Below, piece after piece: positions 3,213-8,285 of a DNA stretch of 45,179 bases. The stretch is from assembly GCA_042216015.1 (NCBI GenBank), contig JBDGUI010000020.1, positions 1 through 45,179 of the forward strand, read 5' to 3'. Source of the stretch: Halodesulfurarchaeum sp. Its GTDB lineage: Archaea; Halobacteriota; Halobacteria; Halobacteriales; Halobacteriaceae. Within the stretch, counting starts at the first letter, position 1, and each line of letters starts with the position of its first letter. The notes beneath the pieces are model-generated. The model had not been told where the DNA came from. It saw nothing but the letters and a program-made list of their open reading frames with translations, and did not search any database. Made by a program: the position numbers and the translations under genes.

Positions 3213-4568
3213 GCGTGGGCTCGGATCGAGGTACGCGGCAAACTCCGGACCGAATTCCGTCGCCAGATCTGCCACCGCCGGACCGGCGAGGACGGTGTAC
3301 CCCTCCTCCAGTGCGGGTTCGATCTGGGCCCCGAGTGCGACGTCGAAGAGTCGGTTCTCGGCGAATTCACGGGCGGTCGTTATCTCCCGTTCCCGCTCGA
3401 TCACGTACCGATCGCGCTCGATGTAGGGGCCCGTGACCGGTTCGTCGGCGTAGGTCTCGTAGAACCGGCGGGCGTGCTCCGCGGCGTGAACCGGTGGGCC
3501 CTCGTGGCGCTCGATCGCCGGCAATTCCCAGACGGTCAATTCGACGAACAGCACCGCCCGGTCCCGGGCCCAGGTCGCGCTTCGAAGTACCTCGAAGCCC
3601 GCCTGGTCGAGGCCGCGAACCAGTCCCGAGAGCGAGCGTCTGAGCTGTGGATAGAGCTGGTCGTCGACCAGATCGGGCGGGGCAAAGACCACGGCGATCG
3701 GGGTGGTTCCCCGTTCCTGGATTGCCGTGTGGACTCCTGCAGGATCCATCGACTCAGGCTCCGGTGGGAAGAAGTGCTCCAGGTCGGGGTCCGCGAGAAA
3801 TTGCCGGGCGAAGTGGACGAGCCGGGCGACGTTCTCGGCCGAGACGACCGCAGCGACGTTTCGCTCCGGGTCGGTTGGGTCGACGACCACGAGTGGATCA
3901 TCGAAGCTGGCGACGGCGTGGTCGGCCGGGTCGAGAGTGACCGGTGGCTGCCAGTCCCGTGCCGCCTCGAGCGTCTCCCTGAAGCCCCCGTACTCCAGGA
4001 CGAGGAGTTCCGCGATGTACCCGGAGTAGCCCTGCCTCCGGAGATCGCTGCCGTAGGCACCGATTCCCTTGAGGAACTGCTTGAAGTATCTGATCGCTGC
4101 AGCCGTGGTGTCGTCGAGTCTGCCCGCGAGATAGGCGTTGTGGAACGGCGTTCGATCGACGGCGGACTGGATCTCGGTCGCATCCCTCACGTCGTAGCAG
4201 GGGACGAGATCGACGGCAAACCCGTGATGCTCGCCCGTGACGTAGGGATGCTCGGCGTATTCCAGATGGCCATCGGGGAGCACTGCTCGCCCGATTCGCA
4301 ACCCATAGCGCTCGAGATCCTCGCGGGGGAGATCCGGGTCGAACGTGACGAACACGTCGATGTCCCGATCACCGCTCACCCAGGTTCCCCGGGCCGTCGA
4401 GCCGACGTGAACAACGGTTGCGTCAACGCCGAGGTCGTCGATCGCCGACTCGATCCGCTCGATGAGGGACGTGACTGCCGCCTCGAGGGCGGCCCGCTCG
4501 TCCGGGTCCGGGTCGACCCGCTCGCCGACCCGCTCGAGCACCGACTCGTACCCGTCACCGGTCGCCAT
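3189..4568 (-). CDS. cca: Archaeal class I CCA-adding enzyme
   Basis: VGSTARGTW..DRDIDVF nucleotidyltransferase motif, YAEHPY, SAVDRTPFH, DPTDPERNVAA. Confidence 0.95.
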   Translation of the reverse strand: MATGDGYESVLERVGERVDPDPDERAALEAAVTSLIERIESAIDDLGVDATVVHVGSTARGTWVSGDRDIDVFVTFDPDLPREDLERYGLRIGRAVLPDGHLEYAEHPYVTGEHHGFAVDLVPCYDVRDATEIQSAVDRTPFHNAYLAGRLDDTTAAAIRYFKQFLKGIGAYGSDLRRQGYSGYIAELLVLEYGGFRETLEAARDWQPPVTLDPADHAVASFDDPLVVVDPTDPERNVAAVVSAENVARLVHFARQFLADPDLEHFFPPEPESMDPAGVHTAIQERGTTPIAVVFAPPDLVDDQLYPQLRRSLSGLVRGLDQAGFEVLRSATWARDRAVLFVELTVWELPAIERHEGPPVHAAEHARRFYETYADEPVTGPYIERDRYVIEREREITTAREFAENRLFDVALGAQIEPALEEGYTVLAGPAVADLATEFGPEFAAYLDPSPRSLAEVDE

Positions 4569-4612
4569 ACGATCTCCTTACCGGGGCCACCCCGAAAGGA
4601 TATCGATGGACG

Positions 4613-5410
4613 TTAGAGCACCGCAAGTGGTGTCATGATCACGACCCCGACCACGATTCCGAGGACCAGTTCGGCCCGACCCCCGCGGCGGAGGCCCTCG
4701 CCGAGATCGAGTGCCTCCGGGATGAATTCGGTGAAAACCAGGTAGATCATCGCGCCGGCGGCAAAGCCGAAGCCGAAGGGCAGGAACTCGCGGGCGTAGC
4801 GCACGAAGACGAACGCGATCACCGCGCCGATGGGCTGGGGCAGACTCGAGAAGACCGACCACCAGACCATCTTCCAGTTCGAGACGCCCATCGCCCGGAG
4901 TGGGATCGAGATCGCCGACCCCTCTGGAACGTTGTGGATCGAGATGGCGACGGTCATGAAGATCGCGAGAATCGGGATCGTGAATCCGAGAACCATCGGG
5001 CCATGACCGAGGTTCAGGTCCGCGAAGGAGACCCCGACCGCGACGCCCTCGGGGAAGCTGTGCACCGTGAGAATGCCGAGGATCAGGACCAGTTTCTTGA
5101 AGTCGGCCTCGGCGTATTCCCGGGGGTCGATCTCCGCGTGCGTGATGACCCGGTGGCTCACGACGACGAGCAGGGCGCCGACGAGCAGACCCGGGGCGAT
5201 TTCCCCGACCGTTCCCTCGGCAAGCCCCTCCTTGAGCAGTCCGAACACGGAAGCGGCGACCATGATTCCCGAAGCCAGCCCCCAGAGGCCCACGTTCCAG
5301 CGATCGGGGATGTCCCCGACGAGGAAGAAGGGAAGCGCACCCAGGCCGGTCGCAAAGGCAGTGAGTAATCCGGCGGCGAAGACCAGGGTCAGATTGGCCA
5401 GCAGACTCAT
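4613..5410 (-). CDS. ZIP-family divalent metal transporter (GufA/ZupT-like)
   Basis: About 8 TM helices; signature motifs HSFPEG and HNVPEG; FAAGAMIY. Confidence 0.92.
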   Translation of the reverse strand: MSLLANLTLVFAAGLLTAFATGLGALPFFLVGDIPDRWNVGLWGLASGIMVAASVFGLLKEGLAEGTVGEIAPGLLVGALLVVVSHRVITHAEIDPREYAEADFKKLVLILGILTVHSFPEGVAVGVSFADLNLGHGPMVLGFTIPILAIFMTVAISIHNVPEGSAISIPLRAMGVSNWKMVWWSVFSSLPQPIGAVIAFVFVRYAREFLPFGFGFAAGAMIYLVFTEFIPEALDLGEGLRRGGRAELVLGIVVGVVIMTPLAVL

Positions 5411-5460
5411 CCGTTGATTGTTCGAAGCCGTTCAGCGTAGTTAAAATTTCGGAAGAAAAT

Positions 5461-5489
5461 TTGGTGGAAACTAAATTAGTCTTTCCTAA
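5461..5489. promoter_or_regulatory. Two tandem DtxR/SirR-type operator boxes upstream of the ZIP transporter
   Basis: TTGG-TGGAAA-CTAA (5461-5474) and TTAG-TCTTTC-CTAA (5476-5489) fit the DtxR-family TTAG-N6-CTAA palindrome. The minus-strand TATA TTTTAACT is at 5439-5446. Confidence 0.6.
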
Positions 5490-5610
5490 CCGGAAGATTT
5501 TCGTCCCGAACGTGAGCGGGGTGGCGGAGCAGTCGATGGGTGAGCGATCCGAAAATCGTGGCCGGTCGAAACGAAAGCCCTATCAAAAGTAGCCAAGTAC
5601 GGTAATCCAG

Positions 5611-5683
5611 GCCGCCGTAGCTCAGCTGGTAGAGCACTCCGCTGTTAACGGAGTTGTCCCAGGTTCGAGCCCTGGCGGCGGCG
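5611..5683 (+). tRNA. tRNA-Asn(GTT)
   Basis: Full cloverleaf: GCCGCCG/CGGCGGC acceptor, GCTC/GAGC D-stem, CTCCG-CTGTTAA-CGGAG anticodon arm, CCAGG-TTCGAGC-CCTGG T-arm; no encoded CCA. Confidence 0.97.
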
Positions 5684-5732
5684 CTTCTGTCGAAGGTAAC
5701 GCTCAAGGCAGCGCCAGCGGTAGGACGTGGTA

Positions 5733-5807
5733 GGGCCCTTAGCTCAGTCTGGTTAGAGCGCGCGGCTCATAACCGCGTCGTCAGTGGTTCAAATCCGCTA
5801 GGGCCCA
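5733..5807 (+). tRNA. tRNA with CAT anticodon, most likely tRNA-Ile2 (agmatidine-modified, reads AUA)
   Basis: GGGCCCT/AGGGCCC acceptor, CGCGG-CTCATAA-CCGCG anticodon arm, AGTGG-TTCAAAT-CCGCT T-arm. The Ile-type GGGCC acceptor, lack of intron and position after tRNA-Asn favour Ile2 over Met. Confidence 0.9.
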
Positions 5808-6160
5808 TTTCTGAACCGCGTCACCGTCGAGGGACCCGAAGGTGTCCGGAGACGTGACCGAGCAGAAATGTGCAGCGGATTTGCAACCCAGGAAACCGAC
5901 CGAAGGGAGGTTTCCCTTGGTTCAAATCCGCTAAGGCCCATGATTCTCGAACGGAACCGTCGAGCGACCAGCGTGCTATGTCGCGAGACGTGACTTCGAG
6001 TGATCTGGGCAGCGGATTTGAATCAGGGAAGGAAGCAAGCGCAGCGAGCGGACTGACCGTGGTTCAAATCCGCCAGGGCCCACATCTCAAAGACCTCACC
6101 CCCGAGCGACCCGGAGGTGTCCCGAGAGGTGAGTCGGTGTGATTGGGCAAGCGGATTTGC
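5785..6160 (+). repeat. tRNA-linked array of three ~135-bp self-complementary units
   Basis: The 23-nt tRNA 3' end TGGTTCAAATCCGCTAGGGCCCA occurs at 5785, 5918 and 6060 (one mismatch in each later copy). Antisense copies centred on AGCGGATTTG are at 5874-5888, 6006-6025 and 6144-6159. The units share an inner motif. Confidence 0.9.
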
Positions 6161-6183
6161 GTTAAGAAGGAACCAGTCAGCAG

Positions 6184-6435
6184 TTACGACGATTCCACAC
6201 CCCACCCATCGCGCTCACTCGTCACGTCAGCCTCCTCGGTTCCCTCGTAGCCCTCGAAGTCGGCAAACGAGCCGACCTGTTGCTGGACGACTTGCACACG
6301 AATACGGTCATTCGCCTCCACCGACCAGCGGATCAGATCACCGTCCCCGGTGTCGAGTTCGCGGCGGATGAGGGCGGGAATGCGGGGCTGGCTGCCAGAC
6401 ACCGTGATCGCGCCGTCGATCGGATCCGGGCTCAT
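6184..6435 (-). CDS. AbrB/MazE/SpoVT-type DNA-binding protein (VapB-like antitoxin), orphan and possibly decaying
   Basis: IPALIRRELDTGDGDLIRWSVEANDRIRV matches the swapped-hairpin pattern; acidic C-terminal tail; no PIN toxin gene follows. Confidence 0.7.
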   Translation of the reverse strand: MSPDPIDGAITVSGSQPRIPALIRRELDTGDGDLIRWSVEANDRIRVQVVQQQVGSFADFEGYEGTEEADVTSERDGWGVESS

Positions 6436-6535
6436 GGGCGAAGATTGGACGTGTCGTTCATAAACGGATTTCTCAACGCGTTACCTCACCACCACTCCCC
6501 ACCCACTTTTCCCCATCCCCCACCACACCTCCACC

Positions 6536-7576
6536 ATGCGCGCTGCCGTCTACCGAGGCCCGGGCGAAATCGCCATCGAAGAGGTCCCCCGACCCGAACT
6601 CGAATCCCCCAGGGGCGCCCTGATCCGCGTCACCCACACCGCAATCTGCGGGTCGGACCTCTGGTTCTACCGCGGGCAGACCGACATGGAGGAGGGCGAA
6701 CGGGTCGGCCACGAACCCATGGGCATCGTGGAGGAGGTGGGAAGCGAGGTCACCTCCGTCGAGCCGGGCGACCGGGTCATCGCCCCCTTCGCGATCAGCT
6801 GTGGGGAGTGCGAGTTCTGCAGAAAGGGGCTGTACACCTCCTGCGTCGAAGGCGAGTCGTGGGGCGGCGCGAACGGCGGTGGGCAGGGCGAGTACGTGAG
6901 GACCCCGTTCGCCGACGGCCACCTCGTCCGCGTCCCTGACCGGCACGCCGACAGCGAGGAGACTCTCGAGAAACTCCTGCCGCTGACAGACGTGCTCGGC
7001 ACCGGACACCACGCCGCCGTGAGCGCCGAGGTCGGGCCGGGCGATACGGTGGTCGTCATCGGCGACGGGGCAGTTGGCCTGAGCGGGGTGCTCGCGGCCC
7101 AGCGCCTCGGGGCCGAGCGGATCATCGCCGTGGGCCATCACGAGGATCGACTCGAAATCGCCGAGGAATTCGGCGCGACCGAGACTGTCGCCGAACGCGG
7201 CGAGGCCGCAATCGAGCGCGTGAACGAACTCACCTATGGGGGGTCGAATCACGTCATGGAGTGTGTCGGCGCGGCCTCGGCGATGGACACCGCGATCGAG
7301 GTCGCGCGTGCTGGCGGGACGATCGGCTACGTGGGGGTGCCCTACGGCGTCGTCGAGGGGGGGATCGACATGGTCTCGATGTTCCGGGACAACCTCACCC
7401 TCCAGGGGGGCGTGGCCCCCGTCAGAAAGTACGCGGAGGAACTCATGGCCGACATCCTCGGCGGTACCCTCGACCCCTCCCCCATCTTCACGAAGACCGT
7501 CGATCTAGACGGAGTGCCGGAAGGCTACACGGCGATGGACGAGCGCGAGGCGATCAAGGTACTGGTGAAGGTGTGA
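6536..7576 (+). CDS. Zinc-dependent medium-chain alcohol dehydrogenase
   Basis: CGSD, GHEPMG, structural Zn site CGECEFC(x7)C, NAD-binding GDGAVG. Confidence 0.93.
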   Translation: MRAAVYRGPGEIAIEEVPRPELESPRGALIRVTHTAICGSDLWFYRGQTDMEEGERVGHEPMGIVEEVGSEVTSVEPGDRVIAPFAISCGECEFCRKGLYTSCVEGESWGGANGGGQGEYVRTPFADGHLVRVPDRHADSEETLEKLLPLTDVLGTGHHAAVSAEVGPGDTVVVIGDGAVGLSGVLAAQRLGAERIIAVGHHEDRLEIAEEFGATETVAERGEAAIERVNELTYGGSNHVMECVGAASAMDTAIEVARAGGTIGYVGVPYGVVEGGIDMVSMFRDNLTLQGGVAPVRKYAEELMADILGGTLDPSPIFTKTVDLDGVPEGYTAMDEREAIKVLVKV

Positions 7577-7604: not shown

Positions 7605-8285
7605 TTACTGGTCGGTGAACGCCTCGATCAGGTCCTGGCCGTCGACGTACGGGATGTCGTGTGCCTCTGCGTAGGCGCGGGCGTCCTCGATCGCGAGGGC
7701 CTCACCGGTCTCGTCGTCCAGCATCTCACACACCACCGCCGCCGGCGGCAATCCCGCTTCGTGGGCCAGCGCGACGGCCATCTCGGTGTGGCCCCTCCTG
7801 TCCGAGAGGCCGTACCGCGAGGCCCGGAGGAGGTGGACGTGACCCGGCGCGCGGAACTCGCGGGGGAAGTCGATTGCGTCGGGGTCGGCTGCGGCCTCCC
7901 CCAGTCGGCTGATGGTCAGCGCCCGGTCGTGATCCGTGATCCCCGTGTAGGTCTCCCGGTGGTTGACGGTGAGCGAGAAGGAGGAGCGCTCGTCGTACCC
8001 GAGGTGATCGCTCTCCGCGACCGGATGGTCGATCTCGTCGGCGAGAAAGGGCAACTCGAAGGCGTCGGCGACCTCCGGGCCCAGCGCGACACAGACCAGC
8101 CCGCCCGCGTCGTTTCGCAGCTGCGAGACCGCCGACGGGTCGATTGTCGCGGCCGGGTAGACCATGTCGACCTCGCCCTCGCGGTCGTCGAAGTCGTGGA
8201 TCAGCACCGGCTCCCCGGCCGCAAAGGCCGCGACTGCGCGCTCGACCGACGTTGCCCCCCGGGTGGCTTCACGCTGACTCGACAT
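7605..8285 (-). CDS. ribB: 3,4-dihydroxy-2-butanone-4-phosphate synthase
   Basis: DFDDREGEVD, TGITDHDRALT, FRAPGHV, RRGHTE, VCEML; ATG at 8285 overlaps the end of ribK. Confidence 0.96.
   Translation of the reverse strand: MSSQREATRGATSVERAVAAFAAGEPVLIHDFDDREGEVDMVYPAATIDPSAVSQLRNDAGGLVCVALGPEVADAFELPFLADEIDHPVAESDHLGYDERSSFSLTVNHRETYTGITDHDRALTISRLGEAAADPDAIDFPREFRAPGHVHLLRASRYGLSDRRGHTEMAVALAHEAGLPPAAVVCEMLDDETGEALAIEDARAYAEAHDIPYVDGQDLIEAFTDQ

Follow-up and report, generated by a model that had tools for sequence, protein, structure and literature searches.

Organisation of the array behind tRNA(CAT)

The window analysed here is the whole 45,179-nt stretch of contig JBDGUI010000020.1 (positions 1 to 45,179, forward strand) from Halodesulfurarchaeum sp. 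(GCA_042216015.1). It contains a tRNA gene with the anticodon CAT that is followed by an array of a modular non-coding element, which we refer to as the tRNA-tail hairpin cassette; two of its units are complete and the third is truncated (Table 1). An earlier note on this DNA had placed unit starts at 5785, 5918 and 6060, each opening with the last 23 nt of the tRNA. A repeat search returned the same positions as a 24-nt direct repeat with identities of 100, 96 and 92% and spacings of 133 and 142 nt. Antisense copies of the tail or T arm, read in that note at 5874, 6011 and 6150, were likewise recovered, as motifs starting at 5873, 6010 and 6149. The 10-mer AGCGGATTTG occurs five times over both strands, all within 5790-6159, at a shuffle expectation of 0.06, and none of 100 shuffles reached this count. 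As the note had argued, plain attachment-site (att) scars do not account for the antisense arms. Open reading frames (ORFs) within the array are spurious, out-of-context frames only, and its units measure 133-142 nt.

The stability of the array was evaluated by folding in two registers. The three segments running from a sense to an antisense copy fold at -46.1, -48.4 and -44.1 kcal/mol (z-scores of -4.9, -4.9 and -3.6), with none of 200 shuffles being equally stable. To this extent the hairpins of roughly 100 nt that had been proposed for each unit stand, and the middle stems named for them do pair, CAUUUCUG with CAGAAAUG in unit 1 and CUCGAA with UUCGAG in unit 2. The alternative register, from an antisense copy to the next sense copy (5874-5932 and 6011-6074), resulted in z-scores of -6.7 and -5.1 and is at least equally significant. 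The array is therefore a chain of alternating palindromes and not a set of three isolated hairpins. Stripped of their tRNA-derived arms, the apex hairpins fold weakly in the window (z-scores of -2.4, -1.1 and -0.2).

The gene that anchors the array had been called tRNA-Ile2, while both ARAGORN and Rfam label it tRNA-Met(CAT). The other CAT tRNAs of the genome are an initiator-like gene on contig C50 and an intron-bearing gene on contig C3, and by elimination among these the anchor is probably tRNA-Ile2.

Some part of the locus was present in 20 of the 21 sequencing runs listed, most of the array stretch being found in two DNA metagenome runs only. Metagenome contigs from these two runs matched 5795-6250 with 0 differences and 5751-6250 with 3 differences. 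One of the three, 5934 A>G, renders tail copy 1 identical to the tRNA tail. RNA-labelled contigs span the tRNA-Asn side only (to about 5723 and about 5755) and are uninformative on transcription of the array.

The neighbours of the array are ordinary and include genes for a CCA-adding enzyme, a ZIP transporter and a zinc alcohol dehydrogenase. An 83-aa ORF with no Pfam match (6184-6435, minus strand) lies between truncated unit 3 and the alcohol dehydrogenase gene, unlike the same-genus genome G001 (locus L018), where the dehydrogenase follows directly after the array. Upstream, the gap between tRNA-Asn and tRNA(CAT) is 48 nt in the window (5685-5732) and about 50 nt in the same-genus genome G011. 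In the complete same-genus genome G002 an ORF for a 153-aa PD-(D/E)XK endonuclease (PF11645; L063:1660-2121, equivalent to L070:985-1446) is found between the two tRNA genes, a presence/absence difference.

Table 1. Features of the tRNA(CAT) locus, in window coordinates.
Feature	Position	Strand	Evidence
tRNA-Asn(GTT), upstream neighbour	5611..5684	+	ARAGORN; Rfam RF00005, 69.1 bits
tRNA(CAT), anchor of the array, probably tRNA-Ile2	5733..5807	+	ARAGORN; RF00005, 64.7 bits; Ile2 by elimination
S0, tail of the tRNA itself (T loop, 3' strands of T stem and acceptor, discriminator), reference for the direct repeats	5785..5807	+	Repeat analysis
Hairpin A of unit 1, T run at start, palindromic, long-type core	5808..5869	+	Folds; orthologous copies in L017, L019 and L020; in covariation alignment A4
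A1, imperfect antisense tail copy, about 3 nt shorter than the sense copy	5870..5883	+	Repeat analysis; 10-mer count
Type-2 hairpin B of unit 1, with the T-loop complement, a structured interior at 5884-5917 and the T loop of the following copy	5874..5932	+	-33.1 kcal/mol, z -6.7
S1, tail copy 1, one mismatch to the tRNA	5918..5940	+	Direct repeat, 96%
Hairpin A of unit 2, with a long-type core in a variant shared with Gly, Val, Leu and Asp tRNA loci	5941..6005	+	Folds; cross-locus alignment
A2, antisense copy of the tail that lacks 3 nt relative to the sense copy	6006..6022	+	Inverted repeats; sense-side bulge of 3 nt in the fold
Hairpin B of unit 2 (type 1, conserved order-wide)	6011..6074	+	z -5.1; fits type-1 and generic patterns; aligned with Haloterrigena salina and G002 copies
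S2, tail copy 2, two mismatches	6060..6082	+	Direct repeat, 92%
Hairpin A of unit 3, long-type core, 81% identity to unit 1 over 74 nt	6083..6143	+	Repeat analysis; folds; alignment
A3, antisense tail copy, end of the array	6144..6159	+	Repeat analysis; 10-mer count
Remnant past A3 without recognisable hairpin B or tail copy, so that unit 3 is truncated	6160..6183	+	Sequence reading; no further tail copy

Anatomy of the cassette

Across the family the units are 93-142 nt long and follow one order: hairpin A comes first, then the imperfect antisense tail and hairpin B, and the tail of the local tRNA, copied exactly, closes the unit. Hairpin A starts with a T run right after the discriminator and is palindromic, variable and about 25-68 nt long; its slot is the position where rare relatives hold a gene. 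T-rich runs are found 3' of the tRNA and of most tail copies, in the genus and elsewhere. A long-type core of hairpin A, which includes the three copies of the window, could be aligned across 21 copies from at least 9 tRNA loci, and, as had been proposed as a check, this alignment covaries. Paired cells amounted to 94.8% as compared to 79.4% in shuffled alignments, the score was 0.408 as compared to 0.133 with none of 500 shuffles reaching it, 7 of 11 pairs showed compensatory changes and slid controls scored 0.03-0.07, figures that overstate independence because the copies are related. The 'conserved apex' of the earlier note corresponds to this one sub-family of a variable module, which covaries over its 21 copies and is weak on its own in the window. 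No strand bias in folding was observed for hairpin A.

The antisense arm is in the genus a good yet shortened match to the local tail, typically with 3 nt fewer in the acceptor part, which results in a bulge. Across the order only its T-stem part tracks the local tRNA, per-position matches being 1.0, 0.89 and 0.74 and falling to 0.2-0.35. Among 250 anchors, 21.6% of the antisense arms ranked in the top 5% for closeness to the local tail when set against non-local tails, as compared to 0.8% in the control. The expectation that the core would recur behind other tRNAs with arms matching the local tRNA accordingly holds for the tail copy, holds within the genus for the antisense arm and is restricted to the T-stem part of that arm across the order.

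In hairpin B an outer stem is formed between the T-loop complement and the T loop of the next tail copy. The type-1 form consists of conserved boxes around a variable interior and contains 31 fixed nucleotides. Interiors are either a perfect mini-hairpin of varying, compensatory sequence or a ladder that combines 2-bp GC steps with tandem G.A mismatches and has a GNA triloop; the interior forms a purine-rich rod with a GNA-type triloop cap. Folding is strand-dependent: in a collection of 36 copies that were not selected by pattern, 35 of which were scored, hairpin B was more stable on the tRNA-sense strand in 30 and on the other strand in 5 (mean of -28.3 as compared to -22.4 kcal/mol). A C-GNA-G motif lies in the central 18 nt of 22 of the 36 on the sense strand, as compared to 6 of the 36 on the other strand.

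The tail copy comprises the last 21-23 nt of the local tRNA, with identity extending from G52/G53 to the discriminator. The left boundary of this identity lies at G52/G53 in all hairpin B types. All 13 tRNA-specific positions agree with the local tRNA in 57 of 80 units, at least 11 of the 13 in 69 of 80, over 27 tRNA types.

Several structural comparisons were dropped. Asymmetry between G.T and A.C mismatches as a test of the strand was confounded by pattern-selected loci and by C-rich tails. From informal inspection of the folds by eye, a bulge-helix-bulge intron was set aside for want of a second bulge, a retroviral-type primer-binding site for want of a CCA complement and a kink-turn (K-turn) for want of the 3-nt K-turn bulge.

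Distribution of the family

In the 1.68-Mb assembly of the window's genome, units lie behind at least 12 of the 33 tRNA genes. The bearers are tRNAs Val-gac, His-gtg, Gly-ccc, Lys-ttt, Ser-tga, Arg-ccg, Leu-tag and Trp, an intron-bearing tRNA on contig C27 and tRNA(CAT), along with Pro-tgg and Leu-gag, behind which the units are partial, being cut by contig ends. An automatic scan of G002 found arm chains behind at least 21 of 42 tRNAs, in arrays of up to nine arms. Scanning of species-representative genomes resulted in at least 120 loci with hairpin B type 1, from Haloferax, Halorubrum, Natrinema, Natrialba, Haloarcula, Haloplanus, Halobellus and many other genera. Positions were analysed for 84 matches in 80 fetched loci out of these. 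In 80 of the 84 the match lies 33-290 nt behind a tRNA on the same strand, with 27 anticodon types represented. Of the remaining four, which have no tRNA in their 400-nt flank, one is at a contig end. In the other three a larger insert separates the tRNA from the unit or, in the case of L176, whose tRNA was not located, a recombinase gene is found about 5 kb upstream. A generic hairpin-B pattern (T-loop complement, 20-50 nt, T loop) was present in 44 of 47 genomes of the order as compared to 2 of 254 elsewhere in the phylum, and the reversed pattern, used as a control, gave 0 matches. The recurrence behind many tRNAs, in same-genus genomes and across the order, rules out a one-off local duplication.

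The apex at 5808-5873 matched only itself by blastn in its own genome, all other matches having E>=0.05, so that the family can be seen only through structure and context.

Other repeats occur at the same tRNA tails. A second palindromic family, in which a T-rich start leads into a G/C hairpin followed by an A-rich run and then a conserved tail, lies behind tRNAs and is often mixed into the same arrays (G002 tRNA tails L058, L059, L068, L081 and L118; contigs C14:1-200 and C44:1-22 of the window's genome). On contig C30 of the latter, two tandem purine-rich repeats of about 75 nt follow a single unit some 100-250 nt past tRNA-Leu(TAG) (7651-7735). Within the same assembly tRNA genes or tails are often found at contig ends (C4:88, C14:201, the end of C25, the end of C2, C44:22, C11:34 and the end of C8), which is consistent with these repeats breaking short-read assemblies.

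Turnover between loci and genomes

A comparison of unit number among strains, as suggested in the earlier note, showed it to differ between same-genus genomes at tRNA(CAT). In seven genomes the locus holds 1, 1, 2 or more, 3, 3 and 4 or more units, with one locus masked, and the sets differ in number, type or order. Orthologues of unit 1 of the window are third in the array of G011, second in G009 and alone in G008, and 6 of the 23 tRNA(CAT) loci listed have no units. Hairpin A and hairpin B types assort independently, as the hairpin A of window unit 2 is joined to a type-2 hairpin B in G001 and to a type-1 hairpin B in G009. In G002 a two-unit block is duplicated behind Ser-tga, and a 68-nt hairpin A differs by only 2-3 nt among the Val-gac, Leu-tag and Leu-gag loci. 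The Leu-tag unit of the same genome has an antisense arm of the Leu-gag type between tails of the Leu-tag type. Distal copies are decayed or truncated (unit 3 of the window, L017 and L018), and arrays often finish with a tail copy and a copy of hairpin A.

Between orthologous loci of different genera, hairpin B and the tail are near-invariant and hairpin A, the antisense arm and the flanks are divergent. At tRNA-Leu(TAA) the copy follows 5 different variants of the tRNA tail in 7 of 8 orthologous loci. This pattern speaks against simple junk and indicates that hairpin B and the tail are under selection, that they evolve in concert with the tRNA, or a combination of the two.

Gene-bearing relatives and candidate enzymes

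In rare relatives the cassette carries a gene. On contig_67 of Haloterrigena salina (L246:13172-14086), a 775-nt cargo (45% GC) that contains a 187-aa ORF lies between tRNA-Ser(TGA) and a series of antisense arm, type-1 hairpin B and exact tail copy; in relatives this slot holds only hairpin A. The 187-aa ORF matched nothing in Pfam or PHROG. On contig_37 of the same species (L247:450-3724), a 3-kb low-GC insert separates tRNA-Val(CAC) from its unit, and a degenerate tail copy precedes the normal unit. This insert encodes a 486-aa P-loop ATPase (phrog_14159, with an ORC/CDC6-like N-terminus) and contains a broken tyrosine-recombinase gene. The fragment was not recognised with Pfam and PHROGs; a homology search did recognise it, at 62-71% identity to 334-aa PF00589/PF02899 proteins. 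A unit in Saliphagus has only the acceptor part of a tail in front of it, and a recombinase gene lies 5 kb upstream. The window's own genome holds a 1.9-kb stretch behind tRNA-Asp(GTC) (C16:19412-21385) that is flanked by the tRNA tail and a 19/20 tail copy. This stretch contains a 354-aa ORF on the opposite strand, a long-type hairpin A at both ends, and an antisense arm and hairpin B before the distal tail. In G002, by comparison, a short unit directly follows tRNA-Asp(GTC).

The tyrosine-recombinase family to which the H. salina fragment belongs is found in 133 of 201 genomes of the order. Fifteen of the 32 recombinase loci that were examined show the arrangement tRNA, element of 2.2-12 kb, integrase gene (antisense), 73-304 nt and tail copy, and short units follow the integrase element in 6 of these 15. 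At tRNA-Tyr of G300, a 135-nt unit shares 78 of 81 nt with the right end and 29 of 34 nt with the left end of the adjacent 4.7-kb element. On these matches the unit may be a deletion derivative of the element, or the element may sit inside a unit. The idea that all short units are deletion derivatives of neighbouring integrase elements fails as a rule, as it holds in one of the six loci. In G002 (C1:1220202-1221500, L248) some 190 nt separate a tyrosine-recombinase gene from a copy of the tRNA-Arg(TCG) tail that comprises the acceptor part only and is followed by a short unit; the tRNA-Arg(TCG) gene itself is 54 kb upstream, which suggests a large integrated element.

Candidate enzyme classes were compared over five same-genus genomes. 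PF00589 is the only such class present in all five, and the window's genome has three PF00589 genes. Cas1 (PF01867) occurs in two of the five; the array-bearing genomes G011 (99% complete) and G009 (98%) lack it, and it was not found in 87%-complete G000. Y1 transposase of the IS200 type (PF01797) also occurs in two of the five and was not found in G009 or in the incomplete G001 and G000, all of which have arrays. Absence from near-complete, array-bearing genomes rules out Cas1 and Y1 transposase as required enzymes.

Comparison with known systems

A cmscan of 4500-7500 against Rfam at E<=10 placed only the two tRNA genes above gathering and nothing on 5808-6160; the other matches, which fell far short of gathering, coincided with the tRNA genes or lay upstream of them at 5173-5229. 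Among the outcomes that the earlier note had named as speaking against it or against its novelty, a lack of homologues, a lack of covariation and a match to a described Rfam family did not occur. RtT repeats (RF00391) behind tyrT of E. coli are tandem non-coding units that each end in a copy of the tRNA 3' end, and small RNAs have been proposed to arise from them. The cassettes are likewise tandem and non-coding, with a copy of the tRNA 3' end closing each unit. In contrast to RtT, which is tied to one bacterial tRNA operon, they are archaeal, occur behind many tRNAs, have an antisense arm and two hairpins and give no match to RF00391.

In the literature, supplementary tables aside, no description of such units was found, so that an unnamed mention in such tables is possible. 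The passages concerned with the Haloquadratum mobile-element inventory (PMC3119063), with archaeal tyrosine recombinases (PMC8371274) and with the SNJ2 integrase (PMC5861418) do not describe such units, and the available text of the review PMC8371274 uses neither 'miniature' nor 'remnant'. Nothing on RtT was present in the available text of PMC10542128.

As characterised in the relevant passages of PMC5704250, cis-mobilisable elements (CIMEs) accrete behind bacterial tRNA genes, lack integrase and transfer genes and are bounded by direct repeats. Going by that portrayal, the cassettes are similar in that they have no integrase or transfer genes, are flanked by direct repeats of the tRNA 3' end, stand in tandem and sometimes lie beside integrase elements (6 of the 15 loci). 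They differ from such decayed, kilobase-sized islands in being 93-142 nt long, structured and modular, in having an antisense copy of the target and in occurring at up to half of the tRNA genes as one family behind 27 types. Descent by decay from an integrase element is seen as shared ends at the G300 locus alone among the six.

The passages of PMC5861418 and PMC8371274 on SNJ2-type tRNA-integrating elements of Halobacteria describe them as having their own integrase and as each being specific to one tRNA, with a core of 13-14 bp for SNJ2. Like these elements as they are portrayed there, the cassettes use the 3' part of the tRNA, in the same orientation of the duplicated tail and at the same loci. 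In the loci examined, however, the repeats of integrase elements reach further 5' than those of the cassettes, and most of their right ends have no hairpin B.

By analogy only, the cassettes are similar to attC cassettes of integrons, with variable cargo followed by an imperfect palindrome, conserved outer boxes, a structured centre, strand-asymmetric folding and stacking at one entry. Unlike in integrons, a tRNA tail serves as the entry site and is duplicated at every entry, and the cargo is usually a hairpin of 25-65 nt and not a gene. No PF00589 ORF lies within 1.5 kb of the 42 tRNAs of G002, no search having been aimed at an integron-type integrase, and the neighbours in the window are ordinary. 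Repetitive extragenic palindromic (REP) sequences, the bacterial interspersed mosaic elements (BIMEs) built from them, and REP doublets forming hairpins (REPINs) with their REP-associated tyrosine transposases (RAYTs) are also short palindromic intergenic units of alternating orientation. The cassettes differ in being tied to tRNA tails and in copying their neighbour, and Y1 transposase is missing from array-bearing G009.

Three further classes were rejected. In a miniature inverted-repeat transposable element (MITE) the outer ends would be inverted repeats; here they are not, the inverted repeat is internal and overlaps the duplicated tail, and no parent transposase was found. A single TnpB gene lies near the 42 tRNAs of G002. 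CRISPR-like or casposon-type integration was discarded on account of Cas1 being missing from array-bearing G011 and G009. A tRNA-like element or pseudogene does not fit, as ARAGORN and RF00005 find only the two real tRNAs in 4500-7500 and the units hold the 3' 23 nt only. The present work contributes a census of two genomes and a survey of the order that includes controls. It also contrasts the tail copy with the antisense arm, describes the strand preference of hairpin B and the chemistry of its loop, shows that hairpin A covaries, reports relatives with cargo and puts numbers on a test of descent from integrase elements, the outcome of which was mostly negative.

Interpretation and alternatives

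We favour, at a probability of about 0.55, a reading in which the array is made up of DNA cassettes that have no integrase and are acquired, lost and rearranged through recombination at the repeated tRNA tail. It builds on what was observed, namely the structure of the units, tails that are specific to the tRNA, occurrence across the order, turnover, relatives with cargo and the presence of integrase elements at the same loci. Cassettes would be inserted, lost, duplicated and reshuffled through this tail, and each event would keep the tRNA intact and add a tail copy that serves as the next target. Hairpin B together with the antisense arm would be the conserved cis-acting site, and the candidate class of enzyme, acting in trans, would be a tyrosine recombinase. 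Both mobility and enzyme are proposed here from sequence comparisons. Insertion that duplicates a 21-22-bp target fits the exact local tail copies equally well, and the combination of exact local tails with antisense arms that are sometimes foreign favours either target-duplicating insertion or rapid conversion of the distal tail.

A number of results weigh against the favoured reading. No excised circle, dated pair of empty and filled sites or RNA/DNA intermediate was seen, and the phage and plasmid collections gave no blastn match at E<=0.01. A crossover in the universal T loop would place element-borne acceptor sequence into the tRNA, which makes spread over 27 tRNA types hard to achieve by a classical att mechanism. 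The window's genome, which is 87% complete, has 0 matches to the integrase family of the H. salina fragment at E<=1e-40, and none of the 141 ORFs within 1.5 kb of the 42 tRNAs of G002 is a PF00589 integrase. Ends shared with a neighbouring integrase element are absent in five of six loci, so that derivation is seen once and not in general, and a parent element for the unit types of the window was not found. Integrase elements mostly lack hairpin B, and their tail identity extends further 5' than the copy in short units. Finally, the better folding of hairpin B on the tRNA-sense strand suits a role as RNA equally well, as does the near-invariance of hairpin B and tail between genera, which a host RNA function would also give.

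Such an RNA role is the main alternative, which we regard as possible, if not as the probable account. Read-through transcripts would fold into hairpins A and B and act as back-up terminators, as 3' processing sites or as small hairpin RNAs; each tail copy with its T run would repeat the 3' helix plus oligo-T of the tRNA, and arrays would change only by unequal crossing-over at the tails. The T-rich runs after the tRNA and most tail copies speak for this, along with the strand preference of hairpin B and of its C-GNA-G motif, the covariation of hairpin A, the compensatory stems within hairpin B and the retention of hairpin B and tail at orthologous loci across genera. Covariation and strand asymmetry would however suit a folded single strand of DNA equally well. 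Function as RNA requires complementarity and not identity, yet the tail is exact in 57 of 80 units while acceptor positions of the antisense arm match at 0.20-0.35 outside the genus. Movement between loci is moreover required by the presence of one hairpin B type behind 27 tRNA types and of a near-identical hairpin A at three loci, and the decay or truncation of distal units, the confinement of units to about a third to half of the tRNAs and the empty orthologous loci fit an RNA role poorly. Recombining cassettes and trailer RNA modules are not exclusive. The earlier note had offered a similar pair, a non-autonomous element that targets tRNAs or a structured RNA derived from the trailer; this pair is supported, and either member of it may be the function.

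It is doubtful, though somewhat less so than the narrower version given next, that the cassettes are a new class of archaeal mobile element for which any tRNA gene can be a target by means of a nucleic-acid 'address'. A recombinase of the host or of the element would then insert the unit after the discriminator and duplicate the tail of 21-22 nt, the hairpin A slot would be for cargo and arrays would be integron-like stacks with tRNAs as entry sites. The antisense arm and T-loop complement would either pair with the target strand or fold with the tail copy into a single-stranded mimic of the end of the tRNA gene, by analogy with attC or CTX sites. Insertion guided by the unit's own antisense arm, with staggered cuts about 21-22 bp apart that duplicate G52/53-N73, is unlikely in our estimation; pairing with the target strand or mimicry of the duplex tRNA end would here resemble attC/CTX-type sites or the guide pairing of IS200/IS605. 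It would explain why exact local tails flank an antisense arm that may be foreign, as in the Leu-tag unit of G002, and is in keeping with the constant left boundary of tail identity, with a cargo slot that can carry an ORF and with a hairpin B that has conserved flanking boxes, a mismatch or bulge, a variable structured centre and strand asymmetry. On the other hand, no known or detected enzyme makes a duplication of 21-22 bp, Cas1 and Y1 transposase being patchy in the genus, the two ends of the unit have no terminal inverted repeats and fast conversion of the distal copy by the tRNA's own tail would give the same pattern. Least probable, and by a wide measure improbable, is the absence of any dedicated mechanism, with template-switching and gene conversion around terminator hairpins mirroring the 5' flank to the 3' side (quasi-palindrome correction) and so generating alternating sense and antisense copies. 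Polyploidy and a tendency to gene conversion are features of haloarchaea, and the alternating orientation with a hairpin at each centre of symmetry, the patchy, shortened matches of antisense arms to the local tail and the frequent ending of arrays in a tail copy and a copy of hairpin A would follow from such a process. It cannot, however, explain why hairpin B type 1 has the same 31 fixed nucleotides in dozens of genera and behind tRNAs of 27 types, nor can it explain the constancy of hairpin B across genera, the near-identical modules at different tRNA loci or the confinement to one order.

Implications

If the favoured reading is true, a third to half of the tRNA genes in many Halobacteria would be trailed by tiny structured elements that have not been catalogued. 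Such cassettes would break assemblies, inflate counts of 'partial tRNA genes' and pass for att scars of prophages, and they would provide repeated sites of recombination beside essential genes. The family raises the question of how one family of elements addresses 27 tRNA tails while leaving each tRNA intact, and whether targeting takes place by a folded single strand or by a guide-like antisense arm. It also raises the question of whether the same modules are transcribed and used in the formation of tRNA 3' ends. As cultivable and genetically tractable species of Haloferax and Halorubrum carry the family, the hypotheses on mobility and on RNA can both be tested directly.

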